Virus record (IMG/VR): IMGVR_UViG_3300020420_001038
Span: 22,866-86,865 of that record
DNA length: 64,000 nt
From: a virus
Direction: 5' to 3' (one strand)
The notes beneath the pieces are model-generated. The model was not told the DNA's origin and ran no database searches. It saw only the letters and a program-made list of their open reading frames with translations. The position numbers and the translations under genes were made by a program. Positions 29,142 through 57,590 of the stretch are shown here, in pieces (positions within the stretch are counted from its first letter, which is position 1; each line of letters begins with the position of its first letter).

Positions 29142-29159
29142 GCACTTCTCCCTCAAAGT

Positions 29160-29202
29160 GCGTTCCTTCGGTTTCCCTACTTCCGTCCTATTGGATGAAC
29201 GT
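29160..29202 (-). promoter_or_regulatory. glnA-type glutamine riboswitch (glutamine-I)
   Basis: Minus strand ACGUUCAUCCAAUAGGACGGAAGUAGGGAAACCGAAGGAACGC: P1 CGUUC/GAACG, P2 UCC/GGA, GGAAGUA and GAAG E-loop strands, P3 GG-GAAA-CC. Confidence 0.8.
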
Positions 29203-29207
29203 AAAAA

Positions 29208-40397: not shown

Positions 40398-40814
40398 TTA
40401 CTCAGATACGATATCTATGTTACCTTTACCTGACGCAATTGAACCTTGGATGTCAGTTCCTAATGAATAAGGTACTGATCCTGTGGCACCGCCTGCAGTC
40501 ACGTAGTGTACTGTGTTGTTGAAAAATTTCTCAACATAAGCAACAGTTGAATCGTCTAATGTAATTTGTACACAGAACTGGTTTGATGTGTTCGCAAGTG
40601 ATCCTGGTGCTACTGCTTTTAATTCGTAAACTGCTTCTGTAGAATCATCCAAGTGTATTTTGAATAACTTAGATCCTCTTTGTGAAACAATGTACGCAGT
40701 AGTTGAATCAACTTTTGCACCACCAGTTGGTCTGTAAGCCGTCACCGCAATTTTACCTGCTGTTGAGGCACCAAAGTCTGATACAAATCTATCTTTTCTT
40801 ATTGGTCTTCCCAT
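40398..40814 (-). CDS. hypothetical structural protein
   Basis: 138 aa; AGGAG SD; late promoter and structured leader upstream. Confidence 0.75.
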   Translation of the reverse strand: MGRPIRKDRFVSDFGASTAGKIAVTAYRPTGGAKVDSTTAYIVSQRGSKLFKIHLDDSTEAVYELKAVAPGSLANTSNQFCVQITLDDSTVAYVEKFFNNTVHYVTAGGATGSVPYSLGTDIQGSIASGKGNIDIVSE

Positions 40815-40830
40815 TTTTTTTCTCCTGTTT

Positions 40831-40902
40831 CAGAGCCTAATGTGAGTTCTACTCACTACGCGGTTTATTCCGCATAAGTCCGCACTTGGTTGTGCGGCTC
40901 TG
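40831..40902 (-). ncRNA. candidate structured leader RNA (four-way junction)
   Basis: CAGAGC/GCUCUG closes three hairpins (CGCAC/GUGCG, UAUGCGG/CCGCGUA, GUGAG/CUCAC), between ATAAATA and the SD. Confidence 0.55.
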
Positions 40903-51567: not shown

Positions 51568-51894
51568 ATGTCCGAAAGAGATCTAATTAAAGAACTCAAA
51601 GCACAAATTGTTGACCTCACCGCAGATCGCGATGATGCTCTGGCTAAAGTCAAGAGCAAGGAGTCACGTATGAAGCAGGTGTTGATAAAATTAGAACATG
51701 CAACTTCAGATGTGCAGGCAACAGGTCACAAGATAGGCGATCAGAACAAGAAGATAGCAGAACTTGAGGCCAAACTCGCGACCAAAGAGGAGTTACTGGA
51801 AGAAGCGTTAACTAAGATTAAAGTATTCAAGCAAGGACATTTTGACCCAGATGACTCAACACACACCGACGCAAAAGATCAAGACCTGGATTAG
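51568..51894 (+). CDS. coiled-coil hypothetical protein
   Basis: Heptad-rich ORF (MSERDLIKELK...). Confidence 0.65.
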   Translation: MSERDLIKELKAQIVDLTADRDDALAKVKSKESRMKQVLIKLEHATSDVQATGHKIGDQNKKIAELEAKLATKEELLEEALTKIKVFKQGHFDPDDSTHTDAKDQDLD

Positions 51895-52351
51895 CGAATT
51901 CGTAACCAAACCGAATCCCATATTCGGCGACCTACCGCCATGCCCGTTTGCCCAAAAGGCCATGCTGGAGGACAAGGTGGAGTTCCTGGAACTGGACGGT
52001 GTTGCCGGATACGAAACACTGTACGGACACATATTCAATTTTGATTTCGAGGACAAGGACGTGTTGGTAATGATAGCACAGCCTGACCAATTCACTGGCC
52101 CAGAGACCGAGCAGTTGGCACGTGATCTCAACTCATACTTCATGTCCAAGGATGTGGTTGTGTTGGAGGACCATCCGGAGATAGATGAGTCGGTCAAACA
52201 TGTCAAACTCAACAATGGTGAATACGTATTGTTCCTGGCCCAGAGCCTCAGCAAGTTGAACCATTTCAGCAAACTGCTGGAATCCGGTCCTTACTATAAA
52301 AATTGGTCTAAAAATTATCTCGAAGCAGTGAAAGGTTTCCGAGAGAAGTAA
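51851..52351 (+). CDS. hypothetical protein (DUF1415-like)
   Basis: WISEFV...LPPCPFAQKA and EDHP motifs resemble the DUF1415 CPFA pattern. Confidence 0.6.
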   Translation: MTQHTPTQKIKTWISEFVTKPNPIFGDLPPCPFAQKAMLEDKVEFLELDGVAGYETLYGHIFNFDFEDKDVLVMIAQPDQFTGPETEQLARDLNSYFMSKDVVVLEDHPEIDESVKHVKLNNGEYVLFLAQSLSKLNHFSKLLESGPYYKNWSKNYLEAVKGFREK

Positions 52352-53081
52352 CCTGGTCGATCTCGCTGTCTCTCTTGCACAGCCTACGGTACAGCCGTTT
52401 GTTAGATGTCCACTCCATGCCGGTCCACCATTCGAATCCCCTCCATGATGCCTTGTATTCCGAGGACTTCTCGTATCCACTGCCCATGTAGTAGTATGGT
52501 ATGGATTGATCCGCGGCCCACATCATCTCGAGATCCATCGTGATCGCCGATATGGGCACTGTGTTGGCGTGTATGCAACTCTCCAGTCCCGACACTGTGT
52601 ATGCGTCCATGTCGTCTATGGTGGGTGCCATCATGTCCTCCTGCCACCAGTAACGTTTTTGCTTTGTGAATCCTATTATGTTGTCAGCGGATCCGGTGTA
52701 GAATATCATGAATTGGTCACGTTTGTGGTAATGTCCGAAAGGGTTGTAGTCCGCGCCAAATTTTTTCCGCTTCATGTACTGCTTGTATATTTCGGGCAGT
52801 CCCAACAGTTTAACCATCTCGGATGCGTCTATCACTTTCAGTTCCACACGTTGTCCCTGCCATTTGTGTTCACGGAATCTCGGTCGGAACCGATCCATGT
52901 GTATGCGTGTGCTACGTGATTGGTAAAAAACTTCCTTGCCGCCCACTGGCTCGTCCAGCGCCAGCCAACCATGTTCTATTGCTTCCGACTCTTCGCCCTC
53001 GTCAAAGATTGCCATGGGTTTGCATACCACTAAATCCTGCTGTTCCTGTTTGCCGAAAGTGTGATCCCAAATAAACTGCAT
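52308..53081 (-). CDS. putative aminoacyl-tRNA--protein transferase (ATE/Bpt-like)
   Basis: AIEHGW, STRI, and C-terminal YYYMGSGYEKSSEYK resemble the ATE/Bpt L..GW and YYYLGY....KM.YK motifs. Confidence 0.6.
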   Translation of the reverse strand: MQFIWDHTFGKQEQQDLVVCKPMAIFDEGEESEAIEHGWLALDEPVGGKEVFYQSRSTRIHMDRFRPRFREHKWQGQRVELKVIDASEMVKLLGLPEIYKQYMKRKKFGADYNPFGHYHKRDQFMIFYTGSADNIIGFTKQKRYWWQEDMMAPTIDDMDAYTVSGLESCIHANTVPISAITMDLEMMWAADQSIPYYYMGSGYEKSSEYKASWRGFEWWTGMEWTSNKRLYRRLCKRDSEIDQVTSLGNLSLLRDNF

Positions 53082-53099
53082 ACTGTACTTAATTCAATA

Positions 53100-53510
53100 C
53101 AAAGATGGTTTGCAACCATCTGAAACTTCGCTACGCTCGTTTCTTTTTTTAATTAACGCAGTTTAAGAAAACTTAACGCATTGTGCGTTCTCTGTGGTAG
53201 ATGAGCAGTCACTATTCTGCTATTACTAGCAGAACAGATCGTAAACTCTGTGGTGAGTTCACAGTCACTATACATCGCTACTCTCGTCGGGCGGTTGTGC
53301 TGTACCCGTTTGCTCATTCATTACAACGCGAGCCTACTAGATCCTTGTATAATAGTATCTAATAAACTTGAGGTTTATCTTTTTCTAAGAGCCTCATCAT
53401 TTTTGCTGTGTGCATCAAAGGATTCACCTGTCGCTTGTTAGCCGCATTTCCTTGCTCACTGGTTGCGATGCTATGTTTGCCTGGGGGAAATTGTGTGTGC
53501 CTATCGCATA
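53100..53510 (-). ncRNA. candidate large structured ncRNA (alternatively a replication origin)
   Basis: About 480 nt with no credible ORF, at least seven inverted repeats and two direct-repeat cassettes; TATAAACA late-like box at the minus-strand 5' end. Confidence 0.55.
53190..53271. repeat. two-copy direct repeat CTCTGTGGT-N7-CAGTCACTAT, 56 nt period
   Basis: 53190-53215 (core AGATGAG) and 53246-53271 (core GAGTTCA), with an 8-bp hairpin between them. Confidence 0.9.
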
Positions 53511-53562
53511 TGTTTATATGAGTTTTATTTTAAGGTCAATCTTTTTGGCTTTAAATATTGTA

Positions 53563-54009
53563 ATGCATTGGCAGTACCGAGAAAAAGACATCACAGAATT
53601 ACCAGATGAGGTTGTGGGATTTGTTTACCAAATAACAAATACAACCAACGGTAGGATGTACATAGGAAAAAAACTTGCTAGATTCAAAAGGTCAAGGAAG
53701 CCTTTGAAAGGCAGGGTCAACAAAAGAAGATACACGGTGGCCAGCGATTGGCAGGATTACTATGGATCAAGTGATGCCCTCAATGAGGACATACAAAAAC
53801 TTGGTAAAGACAAATTCAAAAGAGAAATATTATTCTACTGCAAATCCAAAGCGGAACTTTCATACGTTGAGGCCAGAGAACAGTTTGCACGAAAAGTTTT
53901 GGAAACAGACGATTACTACAACGGCCATATCAGGGTTCGTATACACGGGTCTGGGATAATGAGAGAAAAATCTACAAAAGGTATATTAAAAGAAAAAGCC
54001 TCCACTTAA
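53563..54009 (+). CDS. minimal GIY-YIG nuclease-fold protein
   Basis: GFVYQITNTTNGRMYIGKK, YYGSS, FKREIL, catalytic-type E (YVEAREQ), YYN. Start at ATG 53563, 5 nt after TAAATA. Confidence 0.85.
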   Translation: MHWQYREKDITELPDEVVGFVYQITNTTNGRMYIGKKLARFKRSRKPLKGRVNKRRYTVASDWQDYYGSSDALNEDIQKLGKDKFKREILFYCKSKAELSYVEAREQFARKVLETDDYYNGHIRVRIHGSGIMREKSTKGILKEKAST

Positions 54010-54028
54010 AATAAGCAGAGGCCTTTTT
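53993..54028. terminator. probable bidirectional terminator between convergent genes
   Basis: AAAAAGCCTC...GAGGCCTTTTT imperfect hairpin. Confidence 0.55.
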
Positions 54029-54055
54029 ATCGCGTTCGGATCCAATTAGCAATAA

Positions 54056-54247
54056 TTACGCCGCAGTTTTTGCCGCGTTTTTAGCCTCTTGAATTTCTTT
54101 TCTTCTTGCTTTGATCAATTTTGAAAGATTAGCAAGTGCTTTTCTGGCTCTTGTTGCAGAAGCCTTTACGCCTTTCTCTGTGAACTTTCCGTTCTCTTCA
54201 GAGTATGCTTGGATCTCACTCATGATCTGTTCATGTGTTTGTGACAT
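54056..54247 (-). CDS. histone H1-like (Hc1-like) small basic protein
   Basis: KFTEKGVKASATRARKAL..L.KL.K..RKE pattern. Confidence 0.75.
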   Translation of the reverse strand: MSQTHEQIMSEIQAYSEENGKFTEKGVKASATRARKALANLSKLIKARRKEIQEAKNAAKTAA

Positions 54248-54335: not shown

Positions 54336-54812
54336 TTAATATGGAATATATGATTCTTTTACCAAATCATATATTTGATTTTTGGTAAACTGCCAATCTT
54401 CATAGATATCAGCAAATTTTTTTGCAATTTTGTCGTAATCTTCTTTGGTTTCCATGTGCCCAGGTTCAAATATTTGGGCATTTTGGTTCTCCATGTTGTG
54501 TCTGTACACAATAAAATTTAAATTTAATTTTTCCAACCCGTAATTTATTGGGCCTGTTTTCTTCCAATTCAAGAACGTGCCTTGTTTGCTTGTGAATACA
54601 AATATTTTCTTTGCTTTGGAAAATAGCAATGAAAGATTTTCATTTATATTCCTATTTCCCGTGGCAGTATGAATCAATATTTCGTATTCTGGTAGGTTTC
54701 GGATGCAATTTCTATCTGTGATATCCAACATATCTTTGCCATAGTAATCACCATCTATAAATTCTTTTAGACTATTTGCAAGATTTCCATGTCCGCCAGT
54801 GACTAGGATCAT
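54336..54812 (-). CDS. short SDR/epimerase-like Rossmann protein
   Basis: ILVTGGHGNLA, LDITD, YxxxK (YGLEK); only 158 aa. Confidence 0.65.
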   Translation of the reverse strand: MILVTGGHGNLANSLKEFIDGDYYGKDMLDITDRNCIRNLPEYEILIHTATGNRNINENLSLLFSKAKKIFVFTSKQGTFLNWKKTGPINYGLEKLNLNFIVYRHNMENQNAQIFEPGHMETKEDYDKIAKKFADIYEDWQFTKNQIYDLVKESYIPY

Positions 54813-56584
54813 ACAATTATCTCTACATCGTTAGCATAATTGGTAAAGCCATTTTCTTTTGTAACTTTTAATACTGAATTTACTCTGCTGACAAGTTCGT
54901 CTTTGTGTGAAATCAAGAAAATATTTTTCCTTTGTGTTCTACTCATGTCTTTAAGAACCGCCATGGAACTTTCTACACCAGATAGATCCATACCTGCATC
55001 AACCAGTTCATCTATGAACAATAAGTTGATCTGTTGATAAAGGCTTTCCCATACATCTCTGAATGCCCAACTTAGACTCAATATCAGTCTATTACGTTCA
55101 CCTCTGCTTAAATTATCAAAATCCAGTTCTCTTCCAAGTTCCTCGATAGTTACTGTCAAGTCTGGTTGGAATGTAACCGTATGCGGTAGTTTAACTTTGC
55201 CCAAGAAGTGTGCAAGTCTTTGGTTCAAATATGTTAAGTTTTGTTCGATTATTCTTGTTCTTATAAATGAGTCTTTCGCTGTTAGTAGTTTGTACAAAAA
55301 CTCCTGGTGTCTATACAAATCTTCCATTTCATTTACACTTGTATAGTCTACTTTTTGTATGGCTTTTTGTGTTAGTTCTTCTATCTGTTCAGCATACGGA
55401 TCTTCTTTTTTCTCTGTTTGTTCCAGTTGTCTTTGTAAATCTTTAAGACTGCCTTTATGGTTGTATGCTTCGTCCATTGTGTCGTAATAGGTATCCGGAG
55501 TTTGTCCTAAATCTCCTATAACATCAAGATCTTGTTGTATTTTTGCAAGATCACTTTTTACTTTGTCACTAATTTCTCTGCTTTCATTTAAGGTTTGTGT
55601 AAGTTGTTCTGTGAGATGCTTATGCTTGTCGTCGTTTAAAGATTGTTCACATGTGGGGCATTTTGCATCTTTGGTGTATTCCAAGTCTGCTTCTGTTTTT
55701 GTTATTGTTTGTTCTGTTTTAGTTAAACTATCTTCGTGATATGCTTTTTCTTTATTTAGACTTAATTGTTTAAGATAGTTTTCATTGTGTTTTTGTAATT
55801 TTTTGTGTGCTTCTAGTTCTTCCTTTATGTTTACTTTTTCAAGTTCTGTGATTGCTTCGTTGAAATTTTTCACGTCTTTTTCTTGTTGCGTTTGCCATGC
55901 ACTAGATCTTATTTTCAAACTTTCAATTGATTCTTGTATTTTTTCATTAGCGGCCATTTTAGAATCTATTTTGTATTTTTCTTCAGTCAATTGTGTTTTG
56001 GTTGATTTCATCTTCTCTTTTAGCAGATCTGCTTTTTGAGATAATAAAGTTATGCCAAGTAATTGTTCAATTATTTCTCTTTGTTCGTTTGCTTTAGTAG
56101 ATAAAAACGGTTGTGTGTATGTGTTCAATGCAATTATATTTTTAAACATTGCCAACGTCATACCGATCAAGTTGTTAATTTCTACTTGCGTTTCCCTATT
56201 TTCACCTTGTGCTTCGTTGCTTTCTGTATTTTGTTCAATGTTGTTTGCATAGAATCTAAAAATACCAGGCTTTCTACCACGTTCAATTGTGTACTCTACA
56301 TTATTTTTTATAAATTTAATGCTTACCATCATGGCTTTTTCGTTGGTTTTGTTTACAAGATTATCTCTTCTGATATTTGTTAAAGCCTCACCAAAGAAGA
56401 CATATGATAGTGCATTTATAATTGTTGTCTTACCTGTACCGTTTCTTGCACCGGCATCATCGCCGCCCAGGTCCAAGTTTTCACCAATAACTAAAACTAA
56501 ATTTTTATTGGCAAAATTAATGCTTTGTGTAGCATTACCCACACTCATGAAATTTTTTACTGTAAGTTCTTTAATTGTTAACAT
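54809..56584 (-). CDS. recombination endonuclease ATPase subunit (gp46/SbcC/Rad50-like)
   Basis: KNFMSVGN, Walker A NGTGKTT, zinc hook CPTC, LSRGE signature, FIDE, ISHK. Confidence 0.95.
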   Translation of the reverse strand: MLTIKELTVKNFMSVGNATQSINFANKNLVLVIGENLDLGGDDAGARNGTGKTTIINALSYVFFGEALTNIRRDNLVNKTNEKAMMVSIKFIKNNVEYTIERGRKPGIFRFYANNIEQNTESNEAQGENRETQVEINNLIGMTLAMFKNIIALNTYTQPFLSTKANEQREIIEQLLGITLLSQKADLLKEKMKSTKTQLTEEKYKIDSKMAANEKIQESIESLKIRSSAWQTQQEKDVKNFNEAITELEKVNIKEELEAHKKLQKHNENYLKQLSLNKEKAYHEDSLTKTEQTITKTEADLEYTKDAKCPTCEQSLNDDKHKHLTEQLTQTLNESREISDKVKSDLAKIQQDLDVIGDLGQTPDTYYDTMDEAYNHKGSLKDLQRQLEQTEKKEDPYAEQIEELTQKAIQKVDYTSVNEMEDLYRHQEFLYKLLTAKDSFIRTRIIEQNLTYLNQRLAHFLGKVKLPHTVTFQPDLTVTIEELGRELDFDNLSRGERNRLILSLSWAFRDVWESLYQQINLLFIDELVDAGMDLSGVESSMAVLKDMSRTQRKNIFLISHKDELVSRVNSVLKVTKENGFTNYANDVEIIV

Positions 56585-57590
56585 CTAGATCATTATAGAT
56601 TGCTGTGAGAATATTTTTGTCATACGTCTCAGAATCTACACCTTGTAATTGTTTTATAACAATTTGATCTACACTGTCAAACTTTTGTACTTCGACAAGT
56701 TGTTGTTGTGCTTGATCAATTTGTTCTGGTATTAGTTGCAATTCTCTCAAATTATATTTCTCAATGAATGTTTCTCGGATAAAATTTGCTTCCTCATATG
56801 AAATTTTTATATCTAAAGTTACTCTTACGTACATCTTTGGTTTCAAATATTGTTCCGGATCTGCTAACAAGTCGGAAATTTTGATTGTGATATACCTTGG
56901 CATATCTGGCCAATTAATATATTTTGGTTTGCCGCCATGTTCTATAATCATCATGCCTCTATCATCGTCCCATGCATCGGCGTAGTTGTGCGGAAATGCG
57001 TTTCCCATGTAAGTGACATTTTTCATAACCTGTCTCTTATGGAAGTGTCCTGAAAAAACTTGCCCACAACCTGCAAAGTGTTCTGTTTGTATACCGCCAA
57101 CATCTGGCATCTCTACCATTGCATTCATTTTAAAATATGGGATCTCAAAATGTCCAAACACATATTGTTGTTTCATCTTTTCAATTTTTTTCCATTCGTC
57201 TCCGACTATCCATGGTATGATTGCCACATCGTCTTCCAAGATCCATTCGTTGACAATATGGATATTCGGAATATTTCTTATGAATTCCATGGAGTTTATT
57301 TCTCTTTTTTCTCTGTAGAACAAATCGTGATTACCCATTATTACATAAACTTTTTCAAATGCCGCACCCAATCTTTCCATGTTAGAAACTGTGTAGTTCA
57401 TTGTGGAAACATTTGTCGAGGCTCTGTGGTGATGCCAATCACCTAGGAATATGCAGGTTTCACAACCATGTGCTTTGGCCTGTTCGATAAACCAATATAC
57501 GAATGATTCGCAATCGTCGTTATGCACACGACTATTACCTTTCATTCCAAAGTGTATGTCTGTGAAACAAGCAACTTTTTTAAAAAACAT
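56571..57590 (-). CDS. recombination endonuclease nuclease subunit (gp47/SbcD/Mre11-like)
   Basis: TDIHFG, LGDWHH, GNHD, GHFE, SGHFH metallophosphoesterase motifs. Confidence 0.95.
   Translation of the reverse strand: MFFKKVACFTDIHFGMKGNSRVHNDDCESFVYWFIEQAKAHGCETCIFLGDWHHHRASTNVSTMNYTVSNMERLGAAFEKVYVIMGNHDLFYREKREINSMEFIRNIPNIHIVNEWILEDDVAIIPWIVGDEWKKIEKMKQQYVFGHFEIPYFKMNAMVEMPDVGGIQTEHFAGCGQVFSGHFHKRQVMKNVTYMGNAFPHNYADAWDDDRGMMIIEHGGKPKYINWPDMPRYITIKISDLLADPEQYLKPKMYVRVTLDIKISYEEANFIRETFIEKYNLRELQLIPEQIDQAQQQLVEVQKFDSVDQIVIKQLQGVDSETYDKNILTAIYNDLDVNN

Follow-up and report, generated by a model that had tools for sequence, protein, structure and literature searches.

Does the structured RNA encoded beside a small phage nuclease gene tell the enzyme where to act, or do the two genes only share a place? 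The question is raised by a locus in a DNA window of 64,000 nucleotides (nt; "the window" below is this whole stretch), which is part of an 86.9-kb IMG/VR viral record from an uncultured marine T4-like phage. There, the gene for a 148-amino-acid (aa) GIY-YIG nuclease stands next to a structured RNA gene and close to the genes for an Hc1-like basic protein and for gp46/gp47. The original prediction, made from the sequence alone, was that the RNA, or the structured DNA of its locus, could supply the specificity of the enzyme. Specificity supplied by the RNA is not supported by the comparison of related loci: the orientation of the nuclease gene flips, its spacing from the RNA varies from 0 to 2.9 kb, and a PD-(D/E)XK endonuclease is found in its place beside an RNA that is 95% identical. 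Because of these three features, and because homologs of the nuclease occur without the RNA, the link between the two genes is probably positional and not molecular; that is, they seem to be neighbours at a hotspot rather than one RNA-protein machine. What is new here is the arrangement of a Seg-type nuclease with a structured RNA other than tRNA in a swappable cassette, a variant of the association between Seg nucleases and RNA genes.

The nuclease protein

Judged from its sequence and its modelled fold, the 148-aa protein is best read as an active, protein-only DNA endonuclease having a catalytic domain of the I-TevI/Seg type and no separate DNA-binding module. This reading is preferred because the Pfam profile is matched over its full length, the confident structural model is nearest to I-TevI, a Tyr/Tyr/Glu/Asn set is invariant, the reading frames are open, and the ratio of nonsynonymous to synonymous substitution rates (dN/dS) is low. 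The match to PF19835 (SegE_GIY-YIG) has an E value of 1.5e-36 and a score of 125.7 bits (cut-off 25), with residues 3-123 aligned to positions 1-123 of the 123 in the profile; the E value against phrog_447 is 2.1e-39. Thus the protein is a stand-alone GIY-YIG protein, as had been proposed. The frame is open over 134-149 codons in all 80 related loci, among which no pseudogene of the nuclease was found, and the median dN/dS against the window is 0.077 (17 of the 68 comparisons had dS < 3).

The AlphaFold (AF2) model, built from 62 sequences, has a predicted local distance difference test score (pLDDT) of 93 and a predicted template modelling score (pTM) of 0.83, with low confidence in the last 25 residues. 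Its nearest fold is the I-TevI catalytic domain (PDB 1mk0, 1ln0): the VIA Z score is 8.5, with a root-mean-square deviation of 2.6 over 82 residues and 24% identity, and the GIY, YIG, Glu and Asn positions are conserved. Foldseek gave nothing at E <= 0.001; its I-TevI rows had an E value of about 0.1 and a probability of 0.98. Further VIA matches were a GIY-YIG restriction enzyme (Z 6.9), the N-domain of UvrC (5.2), T4 endonuclease II (DenA; 2wsh, 5.2 and thus below I-TevI) and Slx1 (2.9). A phmmer search with the nuclease against the PDB sequences returned no GIY-YIG chain and a single chance match to a ribosomal protein. Y22, Y33, E103 and N120 are invariant in the 62-sequence alignment, and, by comparison with I-TevI, they are the putative catalytic residues.

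The absence of a C-terminal DNA-binding domain had also been noticed correctly. The catalytic domain is followed by just a 25-residue tail (pLDDT 62-69). In the Seg homing endonucleases of T4 (SegA-G), a C-terminal region binds DNA and provides site specificity, whereas this region is absent from the 148-aa protein. I-TevI, which is intron-encoded, is targeted via a linker, a zinc finger and a helix-turn-helix domain, none of which is present here. The short single-domain form is the norm of the family: among the 150 best representatives of 50%-identity clusters, 104 are of 120-160 aa, 23 of 161-200 aa, 12 shorter than 120 aa and 11 longer than 200 aa. The collection clustered at 90% contains 7091 matching proteins (E <= 1e-5); of the best 120, 116 are of 120-160 aa. 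The long relatives (>200 aa) bear repeated tails like the DNA-binding regions of Seg and I-TevI, and the repeats are NUMOD3-like.

The basic stretch RFKRSRKPLKGRVNKRR had been regarded as an insertion peculiar to this protein. It lies, however, inside the uninterrupted PF19835 match, and the consensus of the 62 sequences retains PLKGK..KR, so that the stretch is a conserved feature of the relatives. It sits between the YIG strand and the first helix; this is a Seg-type feature, unlike I-TevI.

The nuclease belongs to a known, uncharacterised family. PHROG 447 is labelled 'NAD synthetase', as are the genes of P-SSM2 (NC_006883, PSSM2_218), Syn9 (NC_008296, BSV9_gp202) and ACG-2014f (NC_047714, HOQ63_gp196). 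This label looks like a propagated error, because the predicted fold is that of a GIY-YIG nuclease.

The RNA beside the nuclease gene

The claim that a structured RNA lies beside the nuclease gene holds up well: covariation, a promoter and a terminator all support a real RNA, and the 481-nt gap next to the gene harbours a genuine structured RNA that was previously uncatalogued. The alignment of 31 distinct copies has 70 predicted consensus pairs, 31 of them with compensatory changes; 98.4% of the cells are paired, and none of 500 column shuffles matched the observed covariation. When the pairing partners were slid by 1-3 columns as a control, 4-9 compensatory pairs were left. A scan of all possible pairs for covariation was too permissive, gave noise only, and was not used. 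The minus strand folds better in two alignments (-158.9 vs -144.3 and -156.4 vs -140.3 kcal/mol). It also has 280 G-U cells vs 10 A-C cells, in a structure that was itself predicted on that strand.

The RNA has at least 15 helices, and the stem of its terminator (helix 15) covaries. Its 19-nt core (Table 1) has at least 120 exact matches in IMG/VR, and the closing pair of this core covaries (CG 20, UA 10). Diverged versions of the RNA (L076, L078, L081) have the same architecture, and even their core stem shows compensatory changes. The RNA is better conserved than the surrounding genes: its median nucleotide identity to the window is 84.5% over 52 loci, whereas the nuclease gene and the 3' part of gp46 reach 75.4% and 77.0%, also over 52 loci each, and the gene of the 257-aa protein reaches 71.8% over 28 loci.

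Two copies of a 26-nt unit are found at 53190-53215 and 53246-53271 (GUGACUG..CUCA/UCUA-CCACAG on the RNA strand). A/G variants of both units change in parallel across phages. The two units could be twin binding sites. Pairing of the two GUGACUG...CCACAG repeats with each other or with GAAUGAGC, judged by eye in alignments A1 and A2, is unsupported, as the A/G changes are parallel and not complementary.

No Rfam family matched the RNA of the window, either at the gathering score or at E values up to 10, or the RNAs of five diverged loci. A group I intron is ruled out by the absence of an Rfam intron match in these same searches, by the RNA's own promoter and terminator, and by the lack of a split flanking gene. 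Neither the 3.1-kb locus nor the 149-nt core of the RNA had a blastn match in 50,697 phage records, and a literature search, mostly at listing level, gave nothing on this RNA or on the short GIY-YIG family. From its sequence, the RNA looks like a candidate new class of large structured non-coding RNA.

Contigs from three of four seawater RNA libraries cover the RNA; one of 394 nt spans 53116-53482, and one of 202 nt is identical over 53129-53330. Contigs from RNA libraries do not prove transcription, and the strand and ends of the RNA cannot be read from them. The metatranscriptome shares of 0.06-0.16 are small and uninformative on habitat. Few short pieces cover the body of the nuclease gene; contigs cannot rank expression, and this thin cover is not evidence of absence.

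Exchange, co-occurrence and layout at the locus

The nuclease slot is an exchangeable cassette. In the clade of the window, the nuclease gene is head-to-head with the RNA, whereas in the other, tandem clade it is co-directional and upstream of the RNA (17 of 19 loci). In 8 of the 71 RNA-anchored loci having a nuclease gene, 0.6-2.9 kb of other genes lie between the two. A PF24608 PD-(D/E)XK endonuclease, in the orientation typical of the clade, fills the same slot in L314, L105, L092/L209 and L097/L210, and a fragment of it is present in L199. The comparison of L314 with L059 is the closest one: gp46/Hc1 are 83% and the RNAs 95% identical, whereas the 510-550 nt from the Hc1 stop codon to the -35 box of the RNA are unrelated, with PD-(D/E)XK in L314 and GIY-YIG in L059. 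The two nucleases were never found together in one record (G000, G001, G005, G006 and Melnitz were tested). The slot is best read as bounded on one side by the Hc1-like gene's terminator, adjacent to gp46/47, and on the other by the -35 box of the RNA, and as fixed within the lineage. In L005, the nuclease and Hc1-like genes are 91-92% identical to those of the window, whereas the RNA is 81% and gp46 80% identical. This means that nuclease and RNA are not always inherited together. Within the close clade, the identity of GIY-YIG alleles is only weakly tied to that of gp46 (rho 0.23, p 0.09).

Within this lineage, nuclease and RNA occur together at nearly every locus. It should be mentioned that the locus sets overlap in contigs and come from a single lineage, so the counts are not independent, and that all co-occurrence at the clade level is confounded by shared descent. 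Two models of the RNA were used. The model R1 was too narrow to detect the RNA of G001 or that of the tandem clade, and a core search allowing four mismatches also failed to find them; the model R2 recovered both. Since R1 missed known copies, its negatives on isolates are valid solely together with R2.

In the nuclease-anchored set (the 80 best of 594 confirmed relatives, 57-99% identity), R2 detects the RNA in 72 of 80 loci, or 72 of the 73 with room for it. Seven of the eight misses have less than 190 nt of contig on the relevant side, and the eighth, L083, has a diverged look-alike only, as judged by eye. In the RNA-core-anchored set (80 loci fetched of at least 120 matches), the nuclease gene is present in 71. 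Four of the other nine end at the RNA and L150 is too short; L118, L092, L097 and L105 truly lack the gene. The diverged clade, reached with a 21-mer anchor, has the nuclease gene in 17 of 19 loci. The Hc1-anchored set comprises 61 loci that offer 1300 nt of room or more: 58 have both nuclease and RNA, two have the nuclease but no RNA within the available 1.4-1.8 kb, and one has a different nuclease and the RNA; none of the 61 has an empty slot. The co-occurrence of the GIY-YIG clade with the RNA, which the original prediction had proposed to look for, is thus found at the clade level. L118 is the sole RNA copy seen without a nuclease gene in the remaining promoter-side contig, which is about 400 nt long. 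At L118:1-400, the start of a divergent open reading frame (ORF) with a CxxxCxxC motif (radical-SAM-like by eye) is found instead.

Beyond the lineage, the nuclease family is much wider than the RNA. Nuclease homologs of up to 57% identity are present in 662 of the 50,697 phage records, in one place each, and the core of the RNA is present in none of them. R2, which finds the RNA in G000 and G001, detects none in the five complete GIY-positive isolates (Melnitz, S-SRM01, ACG-2014f, P-SSM2 and Syn9). At the level of the family, therefore, homologs without the RNA are what is found, an outcome that had been named beforehand as speaking against an RNA-protein system. The PF19835/PHROG 447 proteins of P-SSM2, Syn9 and ACG-2014f have the same length and single-domain layout as the protein of the window, but their genes lie in other contexts. 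The neighbourhoods of the nuclease gene differ among the five isolates and are variable accessory regions; short GIY-YIG genes are found after nrdB, near talC or a tRNA gene, or near the endolysin gene. The family is patchy, being present in five of seven complete Kyanoviridae isolates, and neither nuclease nor RNA was found in S-PM2 and HTVC008M.

The features of the locus are listed in Table 1. Transcription is organised in three separate units, namely the RNA, which has a promoter and a terminator of its own on the minus strand, the nuclease gene, and the Hc1-like gene, which is convergent with the nuclease gene. The latter two are not co-transcribed, as they are on opposite strands and run into a common hairpin.

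Table 1. Position and strand of the features at the nuclease locus (window coordinates, except where a locus is named)
Feature	Position	Strand	Remark
Nuclease gene	53563..54009	+	148 aa, predicted domain-only SegE/I-TevI-type GIY-YIG; sole plus-strand gene of the stretch from gp55 to the 257-aa gene
Possible late-type promoter box TTTAAATA	53550..53557	+	Read from sequence; 5 nt before the nuclease ATG
Structured non-coding RNA gene, ~410 nt	53095..53510	-	Ends inferred from promoter and terminator
Sigma70-like promoter of the RNA	53513..53539	-	TTGACC 53539-53534, 15-nt spacer, TATAAA 53518-53513; read from sequence
Invariant 19-nt loop-and-stem core of the RNA, GGGTACAGCACAACCGCCC (RNA strand)	53289..53307	-	Same in 30 of 31 aligned sequences
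Terminator hairpin of the RNA with T-rich run	53103..53121	-	Terminator scan; directly before the 257-aa gene
Hairpin shared by the convergent nuclease and Hc1-like genes	53993..54027		16-pair stem with T-run; shared terminator
Hc1-like basic protein gene	54056..54247	-	63 aa, PF07432
158-aa ORF	54336-54812	-	Between the Hc1-like gene and gp46; no Pfam/PHROG match
gp46/gp47 (SbcC/SbcD-like, Rad50/Mre11-type)	54809..57590	-	phrog_77 E 1e-97, phrog_100 E 5.8e-64; conserved anchor of the locus
257-aa gene	52308..53081	-	Downstream of the RNA; neighbour outside the unit; no Pfam/PHROG match
PF24608 'phage putative PDDEXK endonuclease'	L314:4214-4723	-	Exact slot of the GIY-YIG gene beside the same RNA

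It had been suggested that nuclease and RNA are transcribed divergently by adjacent late-type boxes. This is only partly the case. Only the nuclease gene is preceded by a late-like box, TTTAAATA, which is at least 90% conserved across head-to-head loci, but the RNA is driven by a promoter of the sigma70 type, and the late-type motif is not enriched: TWTAAATA occurs 9 times in the window, vs 13.2 +/- 3.7 expected. TTGAC of the RNA promoter is at least 90% conserved in alignment A1, and its counterpart in L314 is TTGACA-17-TATATA. The distance from the nuclease ATG to the -35 box of the RNA is 24 nt, and in L314 the start codon of the nuclease gene overlaps the TTGACA box.

The nuclease gene had also been described as followed by a histone-like gene and gp46/47/55. 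These genes are indeed present, but the Hc1-like gene is convergent on the opposite strand, and the 158-aa ORF stands before gp46. The Hc1-like protein matches PF07432 with an E value of 1.2e-12 and 47.9 bits (cut-off 23.5) over positions 2-56 of 57; its aa identity is 79-98% across GIY-anchored loci of the window type and 56-60% in the tandem clade. The 158-aa ORF is found in 6 of the 80 nuclease-anchored loci only, so that this stretch, which separates the Hc1-like gene from gp46, gains and loses genes. In both clades, gp46 adjoins the nuclease slot. The late sigma factor gp55 (phrog_12791, E 3.1e-84) is encoded on the minus strand beyond gp47.

On the other side of the RNA, the 257-aa gene and a 169-aa gene (51842-52351, plus strand) move as a pair, and this block is inverted relative to the RNA in L080, L061 and L087. 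The RNA as a leader of the 257-aa gene is ruled out, since in these three loci the gene is inverted and moved while the orientation of the RNA is kept, and the RNA has its own terminator. Elsewhere in the window, two Rfam matches above the gathering score are found on the minus strand: a freshwater-2 RNA (40812-40897, 75.1 bits) and a glutamine riboswitch aptamer (29157-29203, 55 bits).

Readings of the association

The reading we favour, with a probability of roughly 0.55, is drawn by analogy: a protein-only DNA endonuclease of the Seg type would be stationed beside a conserved RNA gene and would drive the inheritance or amplification of the locus, as SegB does for tRNA genes. A DNA-acting nuclease beside a valuable RNA gene is assumed since the pattern most resembles that of T4/T6 SegB. 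PMC2330249 places SegB, a free-standing homing endonuclease, within the tRNA gene cluster of T4 and ascribes to it the preferential inheritance of this region. In PMC13096335, SegB is described as amplifying adjacent RNA genes, and its homologs, 'repeatedly domesticated' by myoviruses, as showing enrichment at distances of up to 1 kb from tRNA genes. The locus of the window resembles SegB in that a gene for a Seg-type GIY-YIG protein, DNA-acting in SegB and predicted to be so here, lies among structured RNA genes of a T4-like phage; the expected outcome, preferred inheritance or amplification of the neighbouring RNA genes, would be the same. The enzyme might act on DNA near its own locus, whether in the replicating genome that encodes it or in those of co-infecting relatives. 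The breaks would be repaired by recombination, with gp46/47 encoded next door, and through this repair the cassette and the RNA gene beside it would be preferentially inherited or amplified as a segment, in the manner of SegB at the tRNA cluster. The RNA would then be cargo or target, not cofactor.

The locus differs from SegB in three respects: the protein has 148 aa without the C-terminal DNA-binding part, its neighbour is a single RNA of about 410 nt and not a set of tRNAs, and the slot is always filled in the lineage. The patchy distribution of the family and the alternative PD-(D/E)XK occupant would fit a Seg homing endonuclease, whereas the lack of empty sites among the 61 Hc1-anchored loci and of a local identity peak would not, and the comparison points both ways.

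Several points weigh against the SegB-like reading. The lack of a DNA-binding domain leaves the site specificity unexplained, and long relatives with NUMOD3-like tails do exist. Without empty slots or pseudogenes, and under strong purifying selection, a useful resident gene fits better than a purely selfish element that is gained and decays. The median identity of the nuclease gene is close to that of gp46 and below that of the RNA, with no local peak, so that nothing indicates recent homing sweeps with the nuclease at their centre. Two nuclease families stand at the RNA promoter clade-wide, in clade-specific orientation, so the RNA locus could need a nuclease. Finally, the predicted cleavage, its target and the amplification are all taken over from SegB by analogy.

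The lack of a DNA-binding domain and of empty or decayed slots, together with purifying selection and ordinary divergence without a sweep signal, keeps alive a second, unlikely reading, in which the small GIY-YIG or PD-(D/E)XK enzyme is a domesticated housekeeping nuclease of phage DNA metabolism, working with gp46/47, and the RNA would be a neighbour without relation to it. Candidate jobs of the enzyme are to nick or degrade host DNA, like T4 endonuclease II, or to trim branched replication intermediates, like T4 endonuclease VII. A slot that is never empty and can be filled by an unrelated nuclease is consistent with such a role, as are the dN/dS value, the absence of pseudogenes and a divergence similar to that of the neighbouring genes. 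T4 endonuclease II is likewise a stand-alone GIY-YIG protein, with a fold match, but the modelled fold is nearer to I-TevI than to it or to Slx1. No endonuclease VII (PF02945) was found in the complete or near-complete genomes of the marine T4-like phages G005 (100% complete), Melnitz, ACG-2014f, P-SSM2, Syn9 and HTVC008M; S-PM2, S-SRM01 and T4 have a homolog. Some support also comes from two papers: Kyanoviridae are described as having no denA homolog, with another endonuclease probably degrading host DNA (PMC10976474), and gp49 as replaced by other nucleases in some T4 relatives (PMC2993671). A housekeeping enzyme, however, would hardly be missing from S-PM2 and HTVC008M or be carried in variable accessory regions by the isolates, and the weak tie between allele identity and gp46 in the close clade does not suit it either.

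An RNA-nuclease module, a generalised form of the original prediction, is improbable in our judgement. Here, the RNA locus would recruit or license any small nuclease encoded at its promoter, which would nick an R-loop or structured DNA and so initiate replication or recombination, or the RNA would guide or regulate the enzyme. The two genes adjoin almost universally, even across a deep split at which gp46 is about 50% identical, as seen in 72 of 73, 17 of 19 and 58 of 61 loci, but every one of these co-occurrences falls within one syntenic lineage. The nuclease gene is always on the promoter side of the RNA, its start codon in L314 even overlaps the -35 box, the RNA is conserved above its flanking genes, and the pair adjoins the recombination genes gp46/47. 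Two unrelated folds beside an almost unchanged RNA are, on the other hand, awkward for a specific ribonucleoprotein, the protein has no RNA-binding domain, and homologs elsewhere do without the RNA. Neither the orientation nor the spacing is constant, and in L118 the RNA stands without a nuclease gene in the upstream contig, of which about 400 nt are available. HEARO/omega-RNA with IscB (OMEGA) is alike in having a structured RNA gene beside a small nuclease gene. That RNA, however, lies in a constant orientation and at a constant distance relative to its ORF, evolves together with a large multidomain protein and has a guide segment; unlike IscB/TnpB-omega-RNA, the present locus varies in both orientation and spacing, the nuclease fold is interchangeable beside a 95%-identical RNA, and no credible Rfam match is found.

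The constant placement of the nuclease at the RNA promoter, whatever its fold, is explained by none of these readings, and it leaves room for a module of DNA transactions defined by the RNA. In this doubtful proposal, the RNA locus would be a site serviced by nucleases: transcription would make an R-loop or structured DNA, the promoter-side GIY-YIG or PD-(D/E)XK nuclease would nick it, and gp46/47 with the Hc1-like protein would start recombination-dependent replication or amplification. If this were true, abundant ocean phages would possess an origin or amplification module that is defined by the RNA and indifferent to the fold of the nuclease. Very improbable is a regulatory or addiction pair, in which the RNA or transcription from its promoter would restrain a potentially toxic nuclease in the cis-antisense or toxin-antitoxin style: the closeness of the back-to-back signals (24 nt in the window, overlap in L314) suits it, but in the other clade the nuclease gene is co-directional with and upstream of the RNA, so that antisense overlap is impossible there, the size and structure of the RNA go far beyond the needs of an antisense regulator, and one 26-nt two-copy repeat is no tandem-repeat antitoxin architecture.

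The analysis connects the domain-only GIY-YIG nucleases of ocean phages, which form a very large and mis-annotated family, with the I-TevI/Seg fold. At the promoter of an uncatalogued RNA of about 400 nt, one widespread lineage always carries either this nuclease or an unrelated substitute, which extends the newly described association of SegB with tRNA genes to another kind of RNA. The near-isogenic GIY-YIG and PD-(D/E)XK alleles form a natural pair for testing the effect of a nuclease on neighbouring RNA genes.

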